Source of the DNA: Candidatus Heteroscillospira sp.
GTDB lineage: Bacteria > Bacillota > Clostridia > Oscillospirales > Oscillospiraceae
Assembly: GCA_050943935.1 (NCBI GenBank)
Contig: JBMNQC010000004.1
Span: forward strand, 107,759 to 171,758
Direction of reading: 5' to 3'
Length of the DNA: 64,000 nt
Part shown: piece after piece, positions 14,370-55,136 of the stretch
How positions within the stretch are numbered: position 1 is the stretch's first letter
Layout of the letters: the number at the start of each line of letters is the position of its first letter
Position numbers and translations under genes: made by a program
The notes under the pieces: generated by a model
What the model was told of the DNA's origin: nothing
Databases searched by the model: none
What the model saw: only the letters and a program-made list of their open reading frames with translations

Positions 14370-16466
14370 TCACTTCACTCCCCGGTAATACAGTCCGCGG
14401 GTAATATTGGTAGCGCTGTAATCCGTCTGGCCCATGTAGGCCTGAGCGGTGAGCACGCACTCCCGTGCGCTCTCCGTGGTGAACAGGAGCCTCGCGCCCC
14501 AGAGGCCTATGCTCTCGTAATCGCCCCGCTTGTCGGCCAGATACAGCCGGTGGGCGTTGAGCACCACGTTGCGGCAGCCAAACTCCCTTATGACGGGAAA
14601 CACGCTGCCGCGTCGGTCGGCAAGCTGGGGATTGTTCTCGCAGTTGCATCTGCCCGCGCTGTTTTTGATGATGCACTGGTCGGACACCATGGCCGGCAGC
14701 CGGCCGTAGACTATCATCTCGGTGTCCAGAGGCTTTATCATGTCTCTTATCTGGCTCAGCCGCAGCTCAAAGCTGGCGGTAGCGGATATAAGTCCCGCGC
14801 AGCGGAGCATCTCCAGAGCGTGGGAGTTGTAGGCGTTCAGCCCGAAGTCGCCCCGCACGGCAAAGCCCAGCTGGCGGCAGATGGCGATATGGCCCAGATT
14901 GCCCACCACCACCTCGGTTATGCCCAGGGATTTTGCCCTGTGCAGCAGCTGGCGCACCGTCTCGCTCTCCGTATCGGTGATAACCCGGGGCAGCACGGCG
15001 GCAACGGCGGCTCCCTCCTGAATGAATGGGGCTATACGCCGGGCGCTCTCGTCGCTGCCCAGCATTTCCAGGGGGACATAGAGGTAATTGGGACGGGTAG
15101 CGGCCAGCTCGGGGCTGAGCTGCTCCGGACGTGTCACCTGATATATGAGCCGCGGCGCGCCGGAGGCCGCTCCGGACAGGGGCGCCGTGGGAAAATCCCC
15201 AAGGGTGCGCTGAGGCGGATTTTTCCGCATAGCCGTCAGCCTAGATATAAGCTCCCGGCGCATCTCATTCAGAGCGGAAGCCGGCAGATACAGCCCCGGG
15301 TCCACCTTGCAGTTTATCTCCACGCCGGAATATGGAGTGCCGCCGGTCTTATAAAGCTGCTCTCCCACGGCCTGTCCGGTCAGCTCTCTGGCTGCGGCGG
15401 CCTGGGGCACGCTTCCCTCGGCTGTGGCGTGATTTCCGTCCATGTCCTCAACGGCGAAGCGGGCGCGCTTGCCTGCCTCAACCACGGCATAGAATTTCAC
15501 CGGCACCCTGCGCAACTCGCTGTTTATGTAGCTCCTGTGGGCTTCGGCAAACATGCGCTCCATGGCGCCCCTGTCCGGCTCCTCCCGGACGCCGAACATA
15601 TCCGGTCCCACCTTGCCGGTGAAATAGCCGTCTGTAAAGCCCTGGCGTGAGAAGGCCAGAGTGAGCCTGTCCATATCCGCCTGAGTGGGAGCCTTTTTGT
15701 TTTTCACGGCGTTTGCGTAAATCTCGGTAACCACCGCGGCGTACTCGGGTCGCTTTGCCCGGCCCTCTATCTTGGCGCAGGCCACACCTATGCGCTCCAG
15801 CTCCTCAACATAGCGTAGCAGGCAGTTGTCCTTCAGGCTCATGGGCTTGTTGTCCATGCGCCCGCCCAGGCTGTAATCCATGCGGCAGGTCTGGGCGCAC
15901 ATGCCCCGGTTGCCGCTGTGTCCGCCTATGAGGGCGCTCATATAGCACTGGCCGGAGTGGCAGAAGCACAGAGCGCCGTGGACGAACACCTCTATCTCCA
16001 CGGGGGAGCGGGCGCATATGGCCTCTATCTGCTTCATATTCAGCTCTCTGGCCAGCACCACGCGCTTCATGCCCAGCTCGGCCGCGGCCAGCACGCCGTC
16101 CAGATTGTGGACGCTCATCTGAGTGCTGGCGTGCAGGGGCATATCCGGCAGCAGGCTTCGCAGCACCCGGGCGAGGCCCAGATCCTGCACCAGTATGGCG
16201 TCCGCGCCTATGTCGGCGGCGCGCACGGCAAGCTCGGAGGCCGCTCTCAGCTCCCTGTCAGAGGCCAGGGTGTTCAGGGTCACATAGACCTTGCAGCCCC
16301 GCACCCGGCAGTAGCGCACAGCGTCGGCAAACTCCTCGTCTGTGAAATTTTTTGCGCCCTGGCGGGCGTTAAAGCCGCCGAAGCCCATATATACGGCATC
16401 CGCACCGCTCTGCACGGCGGCAATTATGCCCTCGGGGGAGCCGGCGGGAGAAAGGATTTCAAGCAT
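14370..16466 (-). CDS. peptidase U32 family protein (long form)
   Basis: 698 aa. MLEILSPAGSPEGIIAAVQSGADAVYMGFGGFNAR N-terminus typical of the U32/PrtC family. Confidence 0.85.
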   Translation of the reverse strand: MLEILSPAGSPEGIIAAVQSGADAVYMGFGGFNARQGAKNFTDEEFADAVRYCRVRGCKVYVTLNTLASDRELRAASELAVRAADIGADAILVQDLGLARVLRSLLPDMPLHASTQMSVHNLDGVLAAAELGMKRVVLARELNMKQIEAICARSPVEIEVFVHGALCFCHSGQCYMSALIGGHSGNRGMCAQTCRMDYSLGGRMDNKPMSLKDNCLLRYVEELERIGVACAKIEGRAKRPEYAAVVTEIYANAVKNKKAPTQADMDRLTLAFSRQGFTDGYFTGKVGPDMFGVREEPDRGAMERMFAEAHRSYINSELRRVPVKFYAVVEAGKRARFAVEDMDGNHATAEGSVPQAAAARELTGQAVGEQLYKTGGTPYSGVEINCKVDPGLYLPASALNEMRRELISRLTAMRKNPPQRTLGDFPTAPLSGAASGAPRLIYQVTRPEQLSPELAATRPNYLYVPLEMLGSDESARRIAPFIQEGAAVAAVLPRVITDTESETVRQLLHRAKSLGITEVVVGNLGHIAICRQLGFAVRGDFGLNAYNSHALEMLRCAGLISATASFELRLSQIRDMIKPLDTEMIVYGRLPAMVSDQCIIKNSAGRCNCENNPQLADRRGSVFPVIREFGCRNVVLNAHRLYLADKRGDYESIGLWGARLLFTTESARECVLTAQAYMGQTDYSATNITRGLYYRGVK

Positions 16467-18532: not shown

Positions 18533-18790
18533 AAATTAAGAATGAATAGTGAAAAATGAAGAATTTTGCGCCTGCCGTAGAATCTGCTCCCCTAACAGGG
18601 GAGCTGTCAGCGAAGCTGACTGAAGGGTTTAACCTATCAAGTTAGCTTGGAACTGATTTGGAGGCTTAAACCCTTCCGCCCTCTGCGGAGGGCACCTCCC
18701 CTGTTAGGGGAGGGAAGTTTTTGGTACGGCGCGCCAGCACCACTACAATTATTTACTATTACTTCTTCACTATCCACTCCCCCATATACT
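18533..18790. repeat. intergenic mosaic repeat cluster 1 (unit 3 inverted, unit 2 inverted, degenerate unit 3)
   Basis: 18575-18713 is the reverse complement of the 47299-47437 / 47705-47840 unit. 18533-18568 is the reverse complement of the AT-rich ATTCTTC-type tail. Confidence 0.9.
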
Positions 18791-23445: not shown

Positions 23446-24531
23446 TCATTCTGCCAGACGGCCGGTATACCAGCCGCTGACGCCGTTTTTCTTGCACAGA
23501 TATCCCCGGCTGGTCCGCCGCACAATTGAAAGACGTTCCCCGGCTTCAACGCCCAGGCGGTAATCCGTGCAATCGTTTGTGGTTATTCCATTCGGCGTTC
23601 TTTTGAGAAAATCCGTGAGTATATCCATCTCATAGCCCGTGCGTATGTGGCGGCACCTGGAAAACTCCTCGCCCTCAGCCAGGACCTCCACCAGATTATC
23701 GCCCCAGCGGATATAATAGGAGCTGACGCTCTCCGCCTGGCTGTCCAGCGCCTCTGCCGTGGGGAAGGGGTCATAGTATACCCAGGCGAAGTCCTCGCTG
23801 CCCGGCTCGGGGATGATGAGGCAGTTAAGCTGCCCGTCGTCCTTCAGCACGCAGCCGCCGTCTATGCTCACTATCTTTCTGTCCCGGAGGATGATGGGGT
23901 TCGCGTCGGTTTTGTCCTCCCGGTAGAGCACCACGGGCCAGTGGCCCACTATCTGCCACTTGCGGAAGCTCAGTCCCTGACCGAGGAAATTGTCGTTTTT
24001 CATGCACTTCTGGGGTTCAGCCTCCGCCGCCGAGGGGGCGGATATTCCACCGTGGACGAAGGTGTAGTGCTCCGTGTCGATTATTATTGGCAGCTTTTCC
24101 AGGAAAGCCATCTCATCGGCGTAGTGCTCCCGCAGGATGTGGCGCACCTGCTCCACATCGGACCATTCGTCGGTCTCCACGCCCACGGCGCGGCACATCT
24201 GCCGCAGCAGGCAGTTCTGGCGGAGGTCCATATAGTGCAGAGTGCGCCCGGCCATCTCCTCGTCCCAATGGAGTATCATGTGCCAGCCGTCGCAGTTGCC
24301 CCGCACCACATGGGTGCTGCCCCTGCGGCACAGCTCCATGATATAGCGCAGGGTATCCAGGCTGTATTTGCCCTTTTCCAGAAAATCTCCGTCTATTATC
24401 AGCACATCGCTGTCGCAGAAGCCTGCCTTATCCAGCACGCCTTTCAGATAGGGGAGATTGCCGTGGATATCCGATATGACCAGTATCCGCCGCCCGGGAG
24501 GCAGCGTCAGTCTCTCTATCTCACCGCTCAA
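23446..24531 (-). CDS. metallophosphoesterase (PPP-family Ser/Thr phosphatase-like) with C-terminal SH3-like region
   Basis: 361 aa. Motifs ISDIHGN, GDFLEKG and RGNCD. Confidence 0.8.
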   Translation of the reverse strand: MSGEIERLTLPPGRRILVISDIHGNLPYLKGVLDKAGFCDSDVLIIDGDFLEKGKYSLDTLRYIMELCRRGSTHVVRGNCDGWHMILHWDEEMAGRTLHYMDLRQNCLLRQMCRAVGVETDEWSDVEQVRHILREHYADEMAFLEKLPIIIDTEHYTFVHGGISAPSAAEAEPQKCMKNDNFLGQGLSFRKWQIVGHWPVVLYREDKTDANPIILRDRKIVSIDGGCVLKDDGQLNCLIIPEPGSEDFAWVYYDPFPTAEALDSQAESVSSYYIRWGDNLVEVLAEGEEFSRCRHIRTGYEMDILTDFLKRTPNGITTNDCTDYRLGVEAGERLSIVRRTSRGYLCKKNGVSGWYTGRLAE

Positions 24532-25667
24532 TCAAGTATCATCTCCATCTGTACGAGCATACCCAGCACGCCCATATCCCGGCCTATTTCCCTAAAGCCG
24601 TAGTGTCTGTAAAACTGCGCGGCGTGCTCGTTGCAGTCGGCAGCGTGCAGGCGCAGAGCGCCGAAGCCCCGCTCCCGGGCGGCGGTCACCGCGTAGCCCA
24701 GCAGCTGGGCGCCGAAGCCCAGGTTTCTGTGCTCACCGTCCAGATAAAACAGGCTTATCCAGCCGTAGCCCTCTTTTTTGCCCCGGAGCATATCCAGCTC
24801 CACTATGCCTATGGCCCTGTCTCCGGAAATCACCTTCACCAGGCAGTCCGGCTCGGAGGCCCGCCTTTTGGCGTTAGAGAGATACACAGCGCCGTCAAAG
24901 CCCCGGAGAGTGCCGTGCACGGTTTTCCAGGCGTCGGCGTAGCAGCCGGTGTAATAATCACTCTCTTTATTCAGGTCCAGCCTCTCGAAGCGCAGGTTGT
25001 TGTTATCCATTCCCGTGCGCTTTTTCCACCATGTCTGGTGGGCGAAGGTGCTGTTTGTCTCGTCCAGATGGCTGTTGTCGTTGCGAAATTCGGGTGTGAG
25101 TGCGCCCCGGTCCCAGATATACAGGCTAACGCAGGTGTTGTCGCCGTGGGGTATGCTCTCCACATCCCGGGAGGGCACGCCCAGAACCCGGCAATGAAGA
25201 GAGCGTATGGCCATGCCGTGGCTCACCAGAACGATGGTCTGTCCCTCGTGCTTTTCGCCCAGCTCCTGCACCACCTCCAGCATGCGGTCGCCCAGATGCC
25301 GGAAGCTCTCGCTGCCGGACACATGCCAGTTGTCCGGGTCGCTTGAAAAAGCCGCAAGCTGTTCGGGGTCCTCCCTGCCTATGTCGCCCCAGGTCCGGTT
25401 TTCCCACACACCCATGCAGACCTCCTTGAGCCTCGGTTCTACTTGTATGGGCAGGTCATGGTATTTTGTTATGGCCGTGGCCGTGGTCTGGGTACGGCTC
25501 AGGTCGCTGGCGTACAGGGCGTCCACATGTATGTCCCTGAATCTCTCGGCCAGAGCGGCTATCTGCCTGTAGCCCCGGCCGGTTATTTTTCCGTCGTGAT
25601 GTCCCTGCACCCGGCGATAGAGGTTGCCCTCCGCCTCAGCGTGGCGAATAATATAAATTTTGGTCAT
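24528..25667 (-). CDS. histidine phosphatase (PGAM-like) fused to GNAT N-acetyltransferase
   Basis: 379 aa. N-terminal IIRHAEAEGN...SDLSRT...VSHG; C-terminal GNAT core HRNLGFGAQLLGYAV...FYRHYGF. Confidence 0.8.
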   Translation of the reverse strand: MTKIYIIRHAEAEGNLYRRVQGHHDGKITGRGYRQIAALAERFRDIHVDALYASDLSRTQTTATAITKYHDLPIQVEPRLKEVCMGVWENRTWGDIGREDPEQLAAFSSDPDNWHVSGSESFRHLGDRMLEVVQELGEKHEGQTIVLVSHGMAIRSLHCRVLGVPSRDVESIPHGDNTCVSLYIWDRGALTPEFRNDNSHLDETNSTFAHQTWWKKRTGMDNNNLRFERLDLNKESDYYTGCYADAWKTVHGTLRGFDGAVYLSNAKRRASEPDCLVKVISGDRAIGIVELDMLRGKKEGYGWISLFYLDGEHRNLGFGAQLLGYAVTAARERGFGALRLHAADCNEHAAQFYRHYGFREIGRDMGVLGMLVQMEMILD

Positions 25668-29903: not shown

Positions 29904-30025
29904 CAGTCGTCCATAAAACAGGCAAATGAACAACACATCGTTTATGGGTGACTGTCATACGGGGTTAGGTGAATGAAATATGCTGGACATGGTTGAAATC
30001 AACCGTGTCCAGCATATTTTTTCGC

Positions 30026-30862
30026 TTATTTGTGTTTCCCTTTTCCGTGGGTCATGCTTGCTTTTCCCCGCTGGTTCATCGGATTTTTCAAGTGTTTGGA
30101 CAGCTTCAAAATCTCAATCAAGGTCACAAACTGCTCCATTGAGATGGCGTCATAGTCCACACCGTACTGCCGAAGAAAAATCCTTGCCCGCTTTTCATCG
30201 TCGCTGCCCTCATAGTTCATGGCCTCTTGCAGTTGCTTTTGGGCTTCAAGGGCAACGGATGGGGCGTCTGCCGTGGTAGTATCGTCCCGGTGAGCCTCCC
30301 GAATGTCACGGAGTATGGTCGTCAAATCCTCAGAGATCACATGACCGAAGTATTCATCCTCCCGCACCTGCGCCAGTTCCAAAGTCCGCAGATGCAGATC
30401 GTCAGCGTTTCCCTCCTGCTTCAACAGCACCATTTGACGGACAGATTCAAGAACAACGTTCATGTCGTTGATCCTCATATCCGCAATCCGATCCACGAAA
30501 ATCTCACCGTCCAGCATCATGCGCTGAAAATCCTTGTGGCATATAATTTCTGACAGCAGCCGCTTATTGAACTTTCCTTCTTTCAAAACATCAATCGCAT
30601 CATCACTCAAATGCAGAGCGTTCAACTCTGCGTTTGGGTGATTTTTTTGTTCCGTCATGCCCAGCAGATAATCCGTGGATACACTGTAGAACTTCGCCAG
30701 CGTCACGATAGCAAAGAGACTGATGTCCTTGAAATCGTCGTTTTCATATTTGCCCAGAGCCGACTTGGAAAGCCCGGTCTGCTCCGCAAGCTGTTCCAGC
30801 GTCAGTCTGCGCTCCACCCGCAAATCCTTCAATTTTTCCTGTATGGTTAAGGTCGTATTCAT
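30026..30862 (-). CDS. XRE-family HTH regulator with long C-terminal domain
   Basis: 278 aa. N-terminal HTH LTLEQLAEQTGLSKSALGKYEND. Confidence 0.8.
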   Translation of the reverse strand: MNTTLTIQEKLKDLRVERRLTLEQLAEQTGLSKSALGKYENDDFKDISLFAIVTLAKFYSVSTDYLLGMTEQKNHPNAELNALHLSDDAIDVLKEGKFNKRLLSEIICHKDFQRMMLDGEIFVDRIADMRINDMNVVLESVRQMVLLKQEGNADDLHLRTLELAQVREDEYFGHVISEDLTTILRDIREAHRDDTTTADAPSVALEAQKQLQEAMNYEGSDDEKRARIFLRQYGVDYDAISMEQFVTLIEILKLSKHLKNPMNQRGKASMTHGKGKHK

Positions 30863-30987
30863 ACCGTGTCCCCCTTGCGCCCGTTGGTATTGTTCGTTAT
30901 TTCCATTATATCACAGCTTGTCCATAAGCGTGGAAATATTCGCTTTTGGATGCCAATTTCCGACCTTTTGGATATACGGGAACGGTC

Positions 30988-31016
30988 ATATATTTTCGCT
31001 AAAATGTAATTGTCAA
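30988..31016 (-). promoter_or_regulatory. putative promoter of the XRE gene
   Basis: Minus strand: TTGACA (complement of 31011-31016), 17-nt spacer, ATATAT (complement of 30988-30993). Flanked by the 9/10 inverted repeat ACGGTCATAT / ACATGACCGT. Confidence 0.45.
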
Positions 31017-31526
31017 CAGACATTGCAGCTTGAAAACCACATGACCGTCCGAATGAGATATGCCGACTGGTGAAGCACCGCCAAGACCTTACCTCTGGTC
31101 ACCGTGACCAGAGGTGACTTCGGGACAAATTGTCCCAAAGCTAAGAGCGTGCCAAGGCCGGGGATACGCCGGGGTGAGATTCCCGGGCAGGAACGACGTT
31201 CGGGAAGAACGGCACTTAAAAATGCAACTCAAAATCAAGCCATGTGAAATCAGCGAACATTCCGCAATCTGAGTATTGCTAACCACACCAAAGAGCGTTG
31301 CGCCGAACAGCGCACACGGTACGGCATCCGGCGTGGATGTTCGCCGTTTCGCATGACTTCACACAAAACTGTGAAACCGAAAGACCGCCCTACTGGACAG
31401 GGCATCATGGGCGGCAATCTGAGCGGAAATTCACTTTCAGAAAAACAACGCTCCACAGCGAACAGAGCTTGCCGTTGGGCATATCCGGTTCACTGCGGAG
31501 ACTACGAAAAAAGGATGATTTTCAGT

Positions 31527-32370
<844 letters not shown>

Positions 32371-32388
32371 AGGGGGGGGATTTACAGG

Positions 32389-32404
32389 AATGTGTACCTT
32401 TCTG
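32389..32404 (+). repeat. inverted repeat, left arm (AATGTGTACCTTTCTG)
   Basis: Exact reverse complement of 32523-32538. Confidence 0.9.
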
Positions 32405-32522
32405 TAAATCATCACAGAAATTTAAACACAGTTATTATAGCACAACGCAACAAGATTTTCTATATAAAAATGGCGAAATCATTCACGATTTAGTGAACAG
32501 GAAAATGTGCGTTTTCACCTTG

Positions 32523-32538
32523 CAGAAAGGTACACATT
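32523..32538 (-). repeat. inverted repeat, right arm (CAGAAAGGTACACATT)
   Basis: Exact reverse complement of 32389-32404. Ends 21 nt before the ATG at 32559. Confidence 0.9.
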
Positions 32539-32558
32539 TTTGTTGGGGGACATGCACC

Positions 32559-33338
32559 ATGAAGATTGTAGCAATACTGTTCGGCTACGCGATCATTTTT
32601 GTGTTTTTCTTCTGGCTGGCCAAAACGATTGGCCGCGCAGTGAATCGGAAGAAAACTGCAACAGCCTTCCGCAGCCATGCTGTGGATCGCGCCAGCGTAA
32701 ATAAGGCGTCAAGTTTCAGCGACATTCAGAGCATTTTCAAGTCAGTGATCTCGTGCAAGCGCTGCGGCGCCAAACTTCGGGTTCCCTGCAACAGGGGAAT
32801 CATTGAGGTGAACTGTCCTAAATGTGGAAATAAATTTCGGCACGACAGCGGGGCAAAGGATAAGGCAGCAGCAAAATCGTCCACGCCCACAAATCCACCC
32901 AAATCATCTAAATCCACCGACGAGTTGGACAACTACCGGCCAGGCGGAGCCTTGCGAAGGGAAATCAACCCAAATCCCACCAGCGATCGGGAAGCGCTTT
33001 TGAACCTCATCGCCACCTGGGCAGCTGCCTGTATAAGAACCCAGCTTTTTGACCGCACCAGCGGCCTTTGGCAGATGGTGCAAAAGCGCGGGGGCAGTCT
33101 CCAGTCGGCGAGTATAAACTTTGCTGCCTGTCAGGTGAATTTCGATTTCCGTTTTTCCAATGCTCCGGCACCGGGACACACTTTCCAATACAGCTACAAT
33201 GAGATAACCAACGAAGAAGGAAAAGCCCCCATCTTCCTCAACAATATGGAGATTGAATGGGTACGTTGCGCTGCGCTGTCCCACTTGGCAGACACGGCCC
33301 CCGGCGCTAAGATGAAAAACGGACGTATCTGGTATTAA
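32559..33338 (+). CDS. hypothetical membrane-anchored zinc-ribbon protein
   Basis: N-terminal TM helix IVAILFGYAIIFVFFFWLA, then CKRCGAKLRVPC...NCPKCGNKF (CxxC...CxxC). Alternative start at 32505 lies inside the inverted-repeat-bounded segment. Confidence 0.6.
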   Translation: MKIVAILFGYAIIFVFFFWLAKTIGRAVNRKKTATAFRSHAVDRASVNKASSFSDIQSIFKSVISCKRCGAKLRVPCNRGIIEVNCPKCGNKFRHDSGAKDKAAAKSSTPTNPPKSSKSTDELDNYRPGGALRREINPNPTSDREALLNLIATWAAACIRTQLFDRTSGLWQMVQKRGGSLQSASINFAACQVNFDFRFSNAPAPGHTFQYSYNEITNEEGKAPIFLNNMEIEWVRCAALSHLADTAPGAKMKNGRIWY

Positions 33339-33398
33339 AAAGCAAGCCTGCTGAATTTACAATTCGGAGGACTAAAACAAAAGGAGAGGAAATGAATT

Positions 33399-33572
33399 AT
33401 GAATTCCAGCGATTACAACAAATACCTTGCATCCATTAAGGCGGCCAATGACTGCGAGGCATCTCGCGCACGGGAGCTTTTGAGGCAAATTCAGGCAGAC
33501 ATGATTGCGCGGTATGGCTCGGGCGATAGGGATGTGGATTACTTAATCCGTCAGTTTCGCTACAATGTATAA
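33399..33572 (+). CDS. hypothetical 57-aa protein (below the ORF-track cut-off)
   Basis: Hand translation MNSSDYNKYLASIKAANDCEASRARELLRQIQADMIARYGSGDRDVDYLIRQFRYNV. AAGGAGAGGA lies 8 nt upstream. Tight spacing to both neighbours. Confidence 0.5.
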   Translation: MNSSDYNKYLASIKAANDCEASRARELLRQIQADMIARYGSGDRDVDYLIRQFRYNV

Positions 33573-33585
33573 GGGGGCGTGAAAC

Positions 33586-34839
33586 GTGGCTGCAAAGTGT
33601 GATTTGTGCGGTGGCGCACTTATTATGGGCGCCGACGGCCAAAGCGCCACATGCAAAACCTGCGGGATGGAGTATTCTGTTGAACGGGTGCGGGAACTGA
33701 TGGCCTTGGATACAGTTGCGGTGGCCCCCCAAGCCGACAGGCAGGAGCAAGCGACGACGTGCGTGCTGTTCGATGACTATCATGCGGTGCTACTGGAGTT
33801 GTTTGAAGAGCACACAGGCATCTCTGCGGCGGATATGTCGCTTGATGAAGAGGAATTGGAACACGCTGTATTCGACATGATCCCTCTTGCATCAAAAGTC
33901 TCGACAATCGACTTTGGGGATTATGCTATTATAGCGACGACAAAGGGCGTGATGACCAAAGTGCTGGATGCAGCCATGCGCAAAACGCTCTCCCGTTATA
34001 AAAAGGGACAGAGAGGTGCAAAGCTTTGGTGCCGCATATTCCTTTCTACACATTATAGAGACGAATTTATCCAGTTTGTTTTACCAGACAATGTGCTTTG
34101 GGAGGTCTCAGGGCTTTCAGAAGGGACACTGGAACAGGCCGTGGCCGAGCTGCAGCAGGAGCTCCCCTTCGGAATTGCGCTAAAGGGGCGAAACGATATC
34201 GTGCAGAATACCGCGCCGACGCCCGCATTGCAGGAAGATGTGCTTGAAGCGACCTGGGAGGAAACTTCAGATGCCGATGTTGCTGCCCAACCACCAGAAA
34301 TGTTTCATATGACAGGCAAATGCGAGTATTACGGTTCTGTAATCAGAGGGGAGGAATCAAGCGCAAATTTTGATGTGGTAAAAGCTATTGCGTTATGTGA
34401 AAAAGCTGACGCAGCCTATAATAGAAATAGCATAGGCAAAGCAATAAGTTACCTCGAAGAGGCCTTGAGATATGATGCGGACAATTATATAGTATGGAAC
34501 AAATTGGGTAGAGCTTATAGGGCATTAAGCTATCTGGACGAAGCAAGAAAGTGTTACCAAAAGGCACTTGAAATAAAACCTGGTGCTATTGATGTGATTG
34601 CAAATATTGGGGTTCTCGAGTTTTCATGTAATAATTATCAGCTTGCGTATCAATATTGCAAACAAGCTTTTGAAGTAGGAGGAGCAACACGAGCAGATAA
34701 CGCAGTATACGCAGCGAACTACGCCATGATGATAGCTAAAATTGGAGATAAGGAAGAAGCTCTTAGAGTATTAGAAATAGCACGAAAAAGAGGGTATCGC
34801 AATTACACTACACTCAAAAGAATGATAAGACAAAACTAA
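33586..34839 (+). CDS. hypothetical zinc-ribbon / TPR-repeat protein
   Basis: 417 aa (GTG start). N-terminal CDLCGG...CKTCGMEY zinc ribbon. C-terminal TPR-like repeats (AISYLEEALRYDADNYIVWNKLGRAYRALSYLDEARKCYQKALEIKP...). Confidence 0.65.
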   Translation: MAAKCDLCGGALIMGADGQSATCKTCGMEYSVERVRELMALDTVAVAPQADRQEQATTCVLFDDYHAVLLELFEEHTGISAADMSLDEEELEHAVFDMIPLASKVSTIDFGDYAIIATTKGVMTKVLDAAMRKTLSRYKKGQRGAKLWCRIFLSTHYRDEFIQFVLPDNVLWEVSGLSEGTLEQAVAELQQELPFGIALKGRNDIVQNTAPTPALQEDVLEATWEETSDADVAAQPPEMFHMTGKCEYYGSVIRGEESSANFDVVKAIALCEKADAAYNRNSIGKAISYLEEALRYDADNYIVWNKLGRAYRALSYLDEARKCYQKALEIKPGAIDVIANIGVLEFSCNNYQLAYQYCKQAFEVGGATRADNAVYAANYAMMIAKIGDKEEALRVLEIARKRGYRNYTTLKRMIRQN

Positions 34840-34849
34840 ATAAAAAAAC

Positions 34850-34893
34850 AAGCCAAAAGCGGCCAACCGTAACAAGTTGGTTTCTTTTGGCTT
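34850..34893 (+). terminator. intrinsic terminator after the TPR gene
   Basis: AAGCCAAAAG...CTTTTGGCTT hairpin, followed by a T-rich stretch. Confidence 0.6.
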
Positions 34894-34984
34894 ACTTATT
34901 TTTAAGAAGAGGCACCGCCATGAGGCTAAAATCAGCACCGATGTCAAGCCCAATTGAGATGTAGAAACGTCGTTCGTTTCTCAT
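34892..34984 (-). pseudogene. 30-codon stub of a RuvC/DEDD-type (IS110-like?) transposase N-terminus
   Basis: Hand translation MRNERRFYISIGLDIGADFSLMAVPLLKNK*, with GAAGGA 7 nt upstream. The IGLDIG motif resembles the first catalytic-Asp motif of RuvC-like/DEDD enzymes. Confidence 0.35.
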
Positions 34985-35178
34985 ATTCTATCCTTCTTCC
35001 CGTTAATGGTTACAGGGATTTCTTTTTGAAATAGTGTGATATATCCTCGTACGGAATCCCGAAATAGACAAATAGACCCCAACCGGCCAAATCATGAAAC
35101 ATAACTGTGGGGATAGACTGATCTCAGTATGATTTCATGACTGGCTTTTGTCGATGAGAGCCTGTTGCCCAGAAGGCT

Positions 35179-35472
35179 TTGCCAGTGAAGCTGTCTTTAT
35201 CCCTTAGTGTAATTATACTAAGGGCGCACTTCTATCTGGCCCGCCGGGAATTGAAACCCTATCTGGAGGAGGGCGGCAAGCTGCCTGTGGCCCAATGGGA
35301 GGCAGAGCGTACCCGGCTGAAACAGGAGTATGCGGCGGAGAGCGAGGCATACAAGCCCATTCTTGCCGATTTGAAAAGCTTGCGGCAAATCCAGTACGCC
35401 GTCGATAGCGCCCGCCATGAGCAGGAGCGCAGCGAACAGGCGCAGAACCGAAAATACGAACAGGAACGATGA
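35179..35472 (+). pseudogene. probable C-terminal remnant of a mobilisation/relaxase gene
   Basis: The coding-like part starts just after the hairpin CCCTTAGTGTAATTATACTAAGGG. A Glu/Arg/Gln-rich coiled tail sits upstream of the TnpW-like gene, as in clostridial Tn4451-like elements. Confidence 0.35.
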
Positions 35473-35487
35473 AAGGAGAAACCGACT

Positions 35488-37424
<1,937 letters not shown>

Positions 37425-37479
37425 CCCAAAGGCCATGCCATTCCCTGTTAAATACGGATTACTGTTTTATTAGCCGCCG

Positions 37480-38451: not shown

Positions 38452-38532
38452 TATTCAATTCTCCTTTCGCGTTTTACCACGATCAATTCTGATGTGCCAC
38501 GAAAGGAGAACTTACAGGACTCTCCTCCGGTG

Positions 38533-38650
38533 GCAGCGGATGCGGATACGGCACCGCAGCGTCATTCCGGTGCGACCAACACCGGCAAGGGCTTTCGTCC
38601 GGCGGCAACTTCCCATCCGCCGACACTTAACGCGCCGTTCCTACTCTGTC
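38533..38650 (-). promoter_or_regulatory. THF (tetrahydrofolate) riboswitch
   Basis: Minus strand reads CAGAGUAGGAACGGCGCGUUAAGUGUCGGCGGAUGGGAAGUUGCCGCCGGACGAAAGCC...CGCAUCCGCUG. This matches the conserved AGAGUAG / CGCGUUAAGUG / GGAUGGGA / CAUCCGCU blocks of the folT motif. Confidence 0.75.
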
Positions 38651-47084: not shown

Positions 47085-47915
47085 ATGGGCACATTGCGCG
47101 CCCCTGTACTTATGCGCCCGGGTGCGGCGGTGAAATCGATTCGTACTGCGGGGTCGTGATATGAAACCCATTTCTTTAAAGAAACGGGTTTCAAACTTCC
47201 CAAAGAATCTGCCTAAGTCGAATACTCTTTTGGGCCTCGCCGACGCGCACAACGCGCTCGTGCGGTGGTGGATGTTAGCCTGCCGTGCCCCGGCTTTTCC
47301 TCCCCTAACAGGGGAGGTGCCCTCCGCAGAGGGCGGAAGGGTTTAAGCCTCCGAATTTGCTCTGAGCTGACTTGATAGGTTAAACCCTTCAGTCAGCTTC
47401 GCTGACAGCTCCCCTGTTAGGGGAGCGGATTCTACGGTAGTGTGGAGTGTTGGGGTGTGCTTAATGCTGAAACCTACTGCCCGATTCCATCGATTCAGGC
47501 GCGATTTGGTGGCACTACCACTTCGCCATTTGAGTAAGGTGAGCCGAAGGCTCAGCTTACGGACATTGGCGAACCGTAAGTTTCTTTGGCGGGCGACACC
47601 GTTTCTTTTGAAAGAAATGGGGTCGCACACCGCCCACCGCAGGCTGCGCCCCGTTCTCTCTGCGGACATCGTGGGCGCGCAATGCGCGCCCCTACACGTC
47701 AAAGCCTCCCCTGAGTAAGGGGAGGTGGCCCCGCAGGGCCGGAAGGGTTTAAGCCTCCGAATTTGCTCTGAGCTGACTTGATAGGTTAAACCCTTCAGTC
47801 GCTCCGCGACAGCTCCCCTGTTAGGGGAGCGGATTCTAGGGAGGTATGGAAAAAATTTTCAATCGGCGCGAAGCGCCACATCAATTCTTCATTCTTCACT
47901 ATTCATTCTTCATTA
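47085..47915. repeat. intergenic mosaic repeat cluster 6 (~450-bp element with nested unit 2, second unit 2, unit 3)
   Basis: Terminal palindromes at 47087-47104 (degenerate) and 47673-47692. Hairpins at 47163-47192 and 47595-47624. Unit 2 at 47299-47437 and 47705-47840. GGCGCGAAGCGCC at 47865-47877, then the ATTCTTC-type tail at 47883-47914. Confidence 0.9.
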
Positions 47916-55049: not shown

Positions 55050-55136
55050 TGGTACCGGAGACCGGGTTCGAACCGGCATGGGATTGCTCCCGGCGGATTT
55101 TAAGTCCGCGGCGTCTGCCTATTCCGCCACTCCGGC
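55050..55136 (-). tRNA. tRNA-Leu (anticodon UAA), CCA encoded
   Basis: Minus strand GCCGGAGUGGCGGAAUAGGCAGACGCCGCGGACUUAAAAUCCGCCGGGAGCAAUCCCAUGCCGGUUCGAACCCGGUCUCCGGUACCA. Cloverleaf with long variable arm, anticodon loop CUUAAAA and T-loop UUCGAAC. I read a G1-U72 wobble. Confidence 0.9.

Follow-up and report, generated by a model that had tools for sequence, protein, structure and literature searches.

Most of what is understood about phase variation in gut bacteria comes from the Bacteroidales and from Clostridioides difficile, where tyrosine recombinases dominate. The fimS switch of E. coli, which is inverted by FimB and FimE, and the RecV-dependent switches of C. difficile are short chromosomal promoter or regulatory invertons that control surface structures through tyrosine recombinases, and in fim the recombinase gene lies beside the switch and is under orientational control. 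Serine recombinases do comparable work in the Hin/hix system and its relatives Gin, Cin and Pin, in which a small serine recombinase inverts a promoter segment between dyad sites with a 2-bp crossover and switches a surface protein ON or OFF. The hin gene lies inside the invertible segment of about 1 kb, a Fis-bound enhancer is required, and the hix sites have a 12+2+12 layout. Mpi of Bacteroides fragilis is a serine recombinase that flips the promoter invertons of surface structures and can act in trans on several sites. The Sin, Bin3 and beta recombinases of Gram-positive plasmids and Tn552 act at res sites with an accessory site and HU/Hbsu and carry out mainly resolution, and the beta recombinase can catalyse inversion as well.

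The closest architectural analogue of the locus studied here is found among the invertible promoters of Bacteroidales ICEs (IP-ARG classes; Yan et al. 2022, PMC8748976), which share with it an invertase, an invertible promoter, variable cargo and a mobile carrier. In these elements the invertase gene lies immediately upstream of the promoter and the variable cargo downstream of it, on a horizontally transferred element, and the outgroup root of the invertase tree was formed by tyrosine integrases (PMC8748976). In contrast, our locus combines a small serine recombinase and a TG-extended sigma-70 promoter with Clostridia as hosts, it is carried by a small element that encodes a large serine recombinase, and no antibiotic-resistance cargo was seen at the switch loci.

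Here, we analysed a window of 64 kb, which is the whole stretch of DNA presented above, and a locus near its middle which, as judged from its sequence, is very probably a promoter inverton, that is, a phase-variation switch with a serine recombinase upstream of two inverted 28-bp sites. By analogy, the nearest mechanistic models would be Hin/hix and Mpi. The likeness to Hin/hix lies in the small serine recombinase, the promoter segment and the short inverted dyad sites with a 2-bp core, whereas the recombinase gene of the window lies outside the 118-bp segment and the sites are 13+2+13. To our knowledge, the Firmicutes hosts lack Fis. With Mpi the locus shares a serine recombinase and a promoter inverton, and action in trans, as suggested by one orphan locus described below, may occur here too; however, the window holds one site pair only and its protein falls far below the cutoff of the Mpi model. 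The Sin/Bin3/beta group, which includes the closest solved relative (2r0q), is alike in size and domain order, but the sites here are inverted and bracket a promoter, and no accessory site was identified. The orientational control of fim is a possible parallel to the antisense-facing OFF state of the window, but unlike fimS and the RecV switches, this locus has a serine recombinase and a mobile cargo module. Inverton group 145 (PMC11892184), which spans phyla and carries a relaxase, was considered as a relative and set aside, being an hsdS/tyrosine-recombinase shufflon. In full-text literature searches, we found no description of a Clostridial Sin-like inverton family, and an uncommented entry in the PhaseFinder tables (Jiang 2019) is possible.

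The recombinase, its sites and the promoter

The features of the locus and of the element around it are collected in Table 1. The gene of the small serine recombinase, the presumed invertase, is intact, and its product carries the YIRVS(T/S) nucleophile motif, SIDRLGRN and the C-terminal helix-turn-helix region, all of them conserved. More than 120 protein clusters are at least 81% identical to it, most of them at least 86%. The homologues align from YGYIRVS onward only, so that translation may begin at a point beyond the ATG at 31720; an exact-protein look-up from this ATG found no such protein on record, and gene callers chose other starts. The best solved relative was Sin/Bin3 (2r0q_C, E=4.8e-29, residues 6-155 aligned), followed by the gamma-delta and Tn3 resolvases and by Gin at 4.5e-16 to 7e-16, so that the protein stands nearer to Sin than to Gin; the Mpi family model (NF009949) gave 53.2 bits against a cutoff of 272, which is below the curated family cutoff. 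An earlier note on this DNA had called the enzyme Hin/resolvase-type. Its placement among serine recombinases stands (PF00239), while membership of the Hin/Gin subfamily does not, as Sin/Bin3 is closest. We suggest that the recombinase would work like a Hin-type invertase and yet belong outside the Hin/Gin subfamily. The layout also differs from the res type, since each locus has two sites, inverted, with no third site, and no enhancer or accessory site was identified at the window locus.

Table 1. Features of the switch and of its host element (positions in the window).
Feature	Position	Strand or state	Basis and remarks
Host mobile element, approximate extent	29952..37444		Backbone, variable cargo slot and large serine recombinase end
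XRE-type helix-turn-helix regulator	30026..30862	-	PF01381 HTH_3, E=2.8e-11; within the conserved backbone
Small backbone ORF, 134 aa, overlapping the recombinase	31353..31757	+	Sub-threshold Pfam matches (Clr5, DUF6471)
Small serine recombinase, presumed invertase	31720..32370	+	PF00239, E=4.8e-29; start maybe near 31759-31768
Left recombination site, 13+2+13 dyad	32381..32408	+	TTTACAGGAATGT-GT-ACCTTTCTGTAAA; central GT 32394-32395
Left arm, perfect 16-nt inverted repeat	32389..32404	+	Sequence, repeat search, shuffles
Invertible inner segment, 118 bp	32405..32522	State A, OFF for cargo	Relatives: both orientations, identical flanks
Predicted promoter	32434..32462	-	-35 TAGAAA 32462-32457, 17-nt spacer, TG-extended -10 TGcTATAAT 32442-32434
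Right recombination site	32519..32546	-	Central AC 32532-32533; outer, cargo-side half-site degenerate
Right arm, perfect 16-nt inverted repeat	32523..32538	-	Sequence, repeat search, shuffles
Junction sequences of the window inverton			State A GTACCTTTCTGTAAATCATC; state B GTACCTTTCTGCAAGGTGAA
RBS GGGGGA of the first cargo gene	32545..32550	+	Sequence
Cargo gene 1, 259 aa	32559..33338	+	N-terminal hydrophobic stretch, then zinc-ribbon motifs
Cargo gene 2, 57-aa ORF	33399..33572	+	Called in L001 and L052; without family match
Cargo gene 3	33586..34839	+	Cys-pair zinc-ribbon-like N-terminus (by eye); C-terminal TPR repeats, TPR_2 E=4e-11
Relaxase C-terminus remnant, 97 aa	35179..35472	+	Likeness to the 443-aa relaxase-like ORF of L007, by eye
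Large serine recombinase (element integrase)	35792..37421	+	PF00239, PF07508, PF13408

The two arms, AATGTGTACCTTTCTG and its exact reverse complement, match perfectly over 16 nt and can be extended to an imperfect repeat of 24 nt (32384-32407 and 32520-32543, 88%). No perfect 16-nt inverted repeat with a spacer of 20-500 nt appeared in 30 Markov shuffles of the 64-kb window, and a search of the 64 kb with three mismatches allowed found these two copies alone, with 0.27 expected. Mismatch and symmetrised-site searches revealed no further site, either elsewhere in the window or at the distal boundary of the cargo, which leaves the models of a multi-site shufflon and of a two-site cassette exchange unsupported. 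In nearly all related loci, the recombinase gene ends 18-19 nt before the left repeat. At each crossover site, two half-sites are inverted around a 2-bp core as in Hin/Gin-type sites, from which they differ in length. The 13-nt halves of the left site agree at 11 of 13 positions, and the site, whose arm is itself a local palindrome, shows no mismatch to the symmetrised 28-mer on one strand and two on the other and is strongly conserved across loci. The right site has six mismatches to the same 28-mer; the cargo-side half-sites vary between cargo classes, with an A/T-rich pattern kept. Such a dyad has the layout expected for a serine recombinase dimer that cuts at the central dinucleotide, and the non-palindromic GT, as the putative crossover position, would set the polarity of the site.

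The promoter is predicted from sequence. In a scan of 31300-33400, the minus-strand TAGAAA-17-TATAAT ranked as the top promoter-like site (10/12 plus the TG extension), a near-consensus sigma-70 type promoter which is currently directed at the recombinase, and on the plus strand a weak match, ATCACA-16-TATTAT (9/12), was found. Of 27 unique invertons, 26 retain the pattern T[G/A/T]GAAA-17-TGnTATAAT, with variable positions adjoining it. When the invertons were aligned in promoter orientation, the -35 element read TGGAAA in 23, TAGAAA in two and TTGAAA in one of them, the spacer was 17 nt in 25 of the 26, and TGnTATAAT was present in 23 of the 26. Upstream of the promoter, the segment holds the conserved blocks TTCGCTG.TTTGTG and CTTTTCGCCAAAAC. 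The inner segment of the window is the most divergent of the family. There was no convincing terminator within the segment and no terminator-like T-run after a hairpin, and Rfam models run over the whole window gave no match in or near the switch. Taken together, the sequence and the searches confirm what the earlier note had claimed about the 16-nt inverted repeats bracketing 118 bp, about the left arm 19 nt past the recombinase stop (stop codon 32368-32370), about the minus-strand promoter and about the RBS and ATG (32559) directly beyond the right arm; the statement that no strong plus-strand promoter lies in the segment was fair, given just the weak match mentioned above.

We propose that the two sites, once occupied by recombinase dimers, would be brought into synapsis and undergo strand exchange at the central GT/AC, leaving the segment inverted. 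In the orientation captured in the window, which we call state A, transcription from the promoter would run leftward and enter the 3′ end of the recombinase gene in antisense. With only 20 nt between the right repeat and the ATG, the cargo operon (32559-34839) has no separate promoter, and read-through from the recombinase gene could still give some cargo expression in this state. Mirror transformation of the segment would place the -35 element of the opposite orientation, state B, at 32465-32470, the -10 element at 32488-32493 and the transcription start near 32500. The state B transcript, starting about 59 nt before the ATG, would then cross the right repeat into the RBS and the start codon and turn the cargo ON.

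The mobile element and its cargo

Most of the loci that are long enough are homologous to the window from 29952 to about 32540 and again over 35731-37444, and the ends of the element were placed by these homology breaks only. Because the homology spans the regulator to the right repeat and resumes in the large recombinase, the switch belongs, by this comparison, to the backbone of a transposon-like element that measures about 7.5 kb and has its variable cargo slot just downstream of the promoter. The layout of this family of small elements from gut Clostridia is an XRE regulator, the small recombinase, the inverton, the cargo slot (with a MobC-like gene and a relaxase after it) and the large serine recombinase; in relatives, a DUF3847/MobC-like gene and a relaxase-like ORF lie between the cargo and the integrase. 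The small ORF overlapping the recombinase, for which other callers predicted a 76-aa version, may encode a DNA-binding protein. Considering the features of mobilisable transposons or IMEs with a large serine recombinase (Tn4451-like in the broad sense), the large serine recombinase is present in the window but interrupted, and the relaxase is a remnant, while relatives have a full-length relaxase-like ORF. The interruption consists of a stop at 37208-37210 and a frameshift near 37255, which were placed by a tblastn comparison with the intact homologue of L050 that split into two frames. The element of the window is thus decayed in appearance and probably immobile, or the MAG carries sequence errors here.

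Near the left homology boundary, 24 nt inside it, we observed a near-perfect 44-nt palindrome (AAATATGCTGGACA...TGTCCAGCATATTT, 29976-30019), which is 93-95% conserved among relatives and gives matches on either strand. It might terminate transcription of the XRE gene or else belong to the end of the element. A tetrahydrofolate (THF) riboswitch on the minus strand at 38532-38650 (71 bits against a gathering score of 36) lies just beyond the right end of the element, and therefore host DNA has resumed by there. Elsewhere in the window, a palindromic repeat element of about 125 nt occurs in three copies (18587-18712, 47300-47425 and about 47745-47829), the one at 18587 being inverted relative to the others. 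Its boundaries are CTCCCCTAACAGGGGAG and CTCCCCTGTTAGGGGAG, with an inner pair GAAGGGTTTAA...TTAAACCCTTC, and it looks like a REP/MITE-like intergenic repeat. The sole tRNA of the window is a tRNA-Leu (anticodon TAA) at 55050-55136 on the minus strand, and two more perfect GC-rich inverted-repeat pairs of 14-15 nt are present (15172-15186 with 15564-15578, and 24487-24500 with 24672-24685), with spacers of 170-380 nt.

The switch is joined to at least 15 unrelated cargo sets, most of which begin with membrane proteins that have N-terminal zinc ribbons. The window's cargo fits this membrane/zinc-ribbon theme: the hydrophobic stretch of its first gene product was read by eye as a putative transmembrane helix, and an identical gene call is present on a Logan contig. 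The cargo genes of the window gave no family match when compared with curated families. Among the other cargo are a TM2-domain protein, an SPFH+SHOCT protein, a lipoprotein with Ltp repeats (Pfam 2e-77; PHROG 'superinfection exclusion' 3e-105), a Sie-like protein (2e-17), a DNA glycosylase, surface proteins of more than 1000 aa and an SIR2-like protein with weak similarity to ThsA. PADLOC on the cargo proteins returned a weak ThsA/SIR2-like match in L051 only and nothing convincing for the cargo of the window. From these sequences, one may reasonably guess that the cargo of the family acts in surface variation or in the exclusion of phages. In L029, which is in state B, an ORF that resembles IS605 OrfB/TnpB by eye lies directly downstream of the inverton (from oriented position 943 onward); if so, the cargo slot has taken up an insertion sequence.

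Orientation of the switch in related loci

Species-representative genomes and metagenomes were scanned for GTGTACCTTTCTG-N(100-130)-CAGAAAGGTACAC, which yielded 15 genome loci and 35 metagenome loci, 50 further loci in all; the same scan of viral contigs found none, and a distant blastn search of a plasmid collection with 31759-32560 gave no match. The loci come mainly from Oscillospiraceae, Flavonifractor and human-gut metagenomes, and the hosts include Flavonifractor, Oscillibacter, several Oscillospiraceae MAGs, Fusicatenibacter, Allofournierella, a Peptococcaceae MAG and a Granulicatella isolate. With the window itself and one locus from an exact-protein look-up, 52 sequences were available, and each was oriented by its recombinase gene (tblastn). 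The promoter pointed toward the recombinase (state A) in 34 of the 52 and toward the cargo (state B) in 17, with one unclear. Both states were seen within each of four cargo classes, and several inner segments occur with identical sequence in both orientations. Two pairs of loci are especially direct. L014 (state A) and L007 (state B) are identical over 400/400 nt on either side of the inverton, and the inner segment of one matches the reverse complement of the other at 117/117 positions; L026 (state A) and L022 (state B) have the same flank identity, 400/400 on both sides, and an inner match of 116/116 to the reverse complement. These pairs show precise inversion between the repeats. Moreover, the isolate Flavonifractor sp. 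HCP28S3_F3 has two copies with different cargo, L003 in state A and L005 in state B, and the isolate Granulicatella seriolae S8 is in state B.

Downstream of the state B promoter lie, in each cargo class examined, the right repeat, an RBS and a start codon, in this order, and the predicted promoter within the segment faces the cargo in one orientation only. These relatives support the proposal of the earlier note that inversion would aim the promoter at the gene at 32559. The note had also asked for the flipped orientation in related elements, which was found as described above, and had regarded the captured orientation as OFF for the cargo, as it indeed is, facing the recombinase. We infer from the relatives that the window's own copy would flip in the same manner.

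Several related loci deserve mention for other reasons. L014 belongs to an Oscillospiraceae MAG and L007 to Granulicatella seriolae S8, a member of the Lactobacillales, so the 400/400 identity of both their flanks would imply a very recent cross-order transfer, or contamination. In L056, in which the arms have diverged and the recombinase is 97% identical, both arms carry the identical C-to-T change. Two loci in one 'Tannerellaceae' MAG, JAJQES01 (L009:1433-1584 and L010:4191-4342), form a diverged subfamily with an inner segment of 126 bp, the promoter TTGTAT-17-TGcTAAAAT and surface proteins of more than 1000 aa as the controlled genes. The promoter of L009 points toward the cargo, and a recombinase 75% identical to that of the window lies about 150 nt away; the promoter of L010 points away from the cargo, no recombinase is present on its contig, and this orphan suggests recombinase action in trans. 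In both loci, the strong half-site is on the cargo side. By eye, the surface proteins are Gram-positive in style, and the MAG may therefore be mis-binned.

Given that the inversion was seen in relatives, the switch family may be real while the copy in the window has become a relic, locked or decayed, and has lost the ability to invert. The window's own variant (window, L001 and L052-L055) is in state A in six of six cases, the large serine recombinase is broken by a premature stop and a frameshift, all that remains of the relaxase is the 97-aa remnant, and no inner segment of the family has diverged further, all of which would fit a relic. However, the small recombinase ORF is intact with all its conserved motifs, both 16-nt arms are perfect and identical to the arms of flipping relatives, and the promoter is intact. 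Six observations in state A, which are partly non-independent, are also unsurprising in a family in which state A makes up about two thirds. We therefore consider loss of inversion in the window possible but unlikely, and a working promoter inverton remains the preferred reading.

A second alternative concerns the target of the switch. The antisense RNA made in state A over the 3′ end of the recombinase gene might, in a fimE-like manner, make the recombinase itself the main target and cargo control secondary. A near-consensus promoter does point into the recombinase gene in state A, about 60 nt from its stop codon, and assemblies show state A twice as often as state B, a bias which self-repression of leaving state A would give. 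On the other hand, the promoter in state B is always followed by the RBS and start codon of the cargo, with no space for another promoter, and an antisense ORF has no support. This role would be compatible with cargo control, as the two are not exclusive, and we think it rather improbable that the recombinase is the main target and not the cargo.

The repeats could also be read as a pair of operators, as an RNA hairpin or terminator, or as the termini of a miniature transposable element that had inserted either way round, since palindromic operators and MITE-like elements are common, the left arm is palindromic in itself and the repeat pair of L010 has no recombinase on its contig. The earlier note had held that conservation of the repeat pair in elements without a recombinase would speak for an operator or terminator. 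L010 was the one orphan of this kind, and it lends no support to that view because the same MAG encodes the cognate recombinase beside L009; nor is there a T-run after the hairpin. The inner segment is exactly reverse-complemented between identical flanks, in four independent cargo contexts, and independent insertions of a MITE at the same site, in both orientations and without target duplication, are implausible. On the evidence of the flipped pairs, these readings were rejected as very improbable. Equally hard to credit is that the two orientations in public assemblies are artefacts of the inverted repeat: the contig of L017 does end in a fold-back artefact, with the recombinase-side flank on both sides of the inverton (L017:2638-2806), but the repeats, at 16-24 nt, are shorter than assembler k-mers normally are, both states occur in isolate genomes and in long contigs from many independent studies and assemblers, and the flipped contigs are colinear for at least 400 nt on both sides.

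A family of mobile switches

Returning to the promoter inverton as the preferred reading, we may ask what such a switch does on a mobile element. The homology between loci ends within about 10 nt of the right crossover site, and every cargo class has its own degenerate outer half-site. This pattern would fit the capture of cargo by the recombinase at pseudo-sites, in a loosely integron-like manner. By analogy, and as a speculation, the antisense promoter of state A might give orientation-dependent control of switching and relate to the 2:1 excess of state A. Combining these ideas, the recombinase and the inverton might form a portable 'phase-variable expression platform' at the cargo slot of Clostridial mobilisable elements, with pseudo-site capture and antisense control of switching as its parts, a scheme which in its entirety we regard as a long shot.

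The mechanism put forward here is classical, and the value of the finding lies in a new family and its context and not in a new principle. The comparative evidence defines a widespread inverton family in Oscillospiraceae and other Clostridia, with a serine recombinase as its presumed driver. The family resides on a horizontally transferred element and appears to place swappable membrane, surface and phage-exclusion-like cargo under stochastic ON/OFF control. Its parts are compact, namely a recombinase of about 200 aa, two 28-bp sites and a promoter segment of 118 bp, and might serve as a genetic tool for Gram-positive anaerobes. For the elements themselves, such a switch may be one way in which they could reduce the cost of the cargo that they carry.
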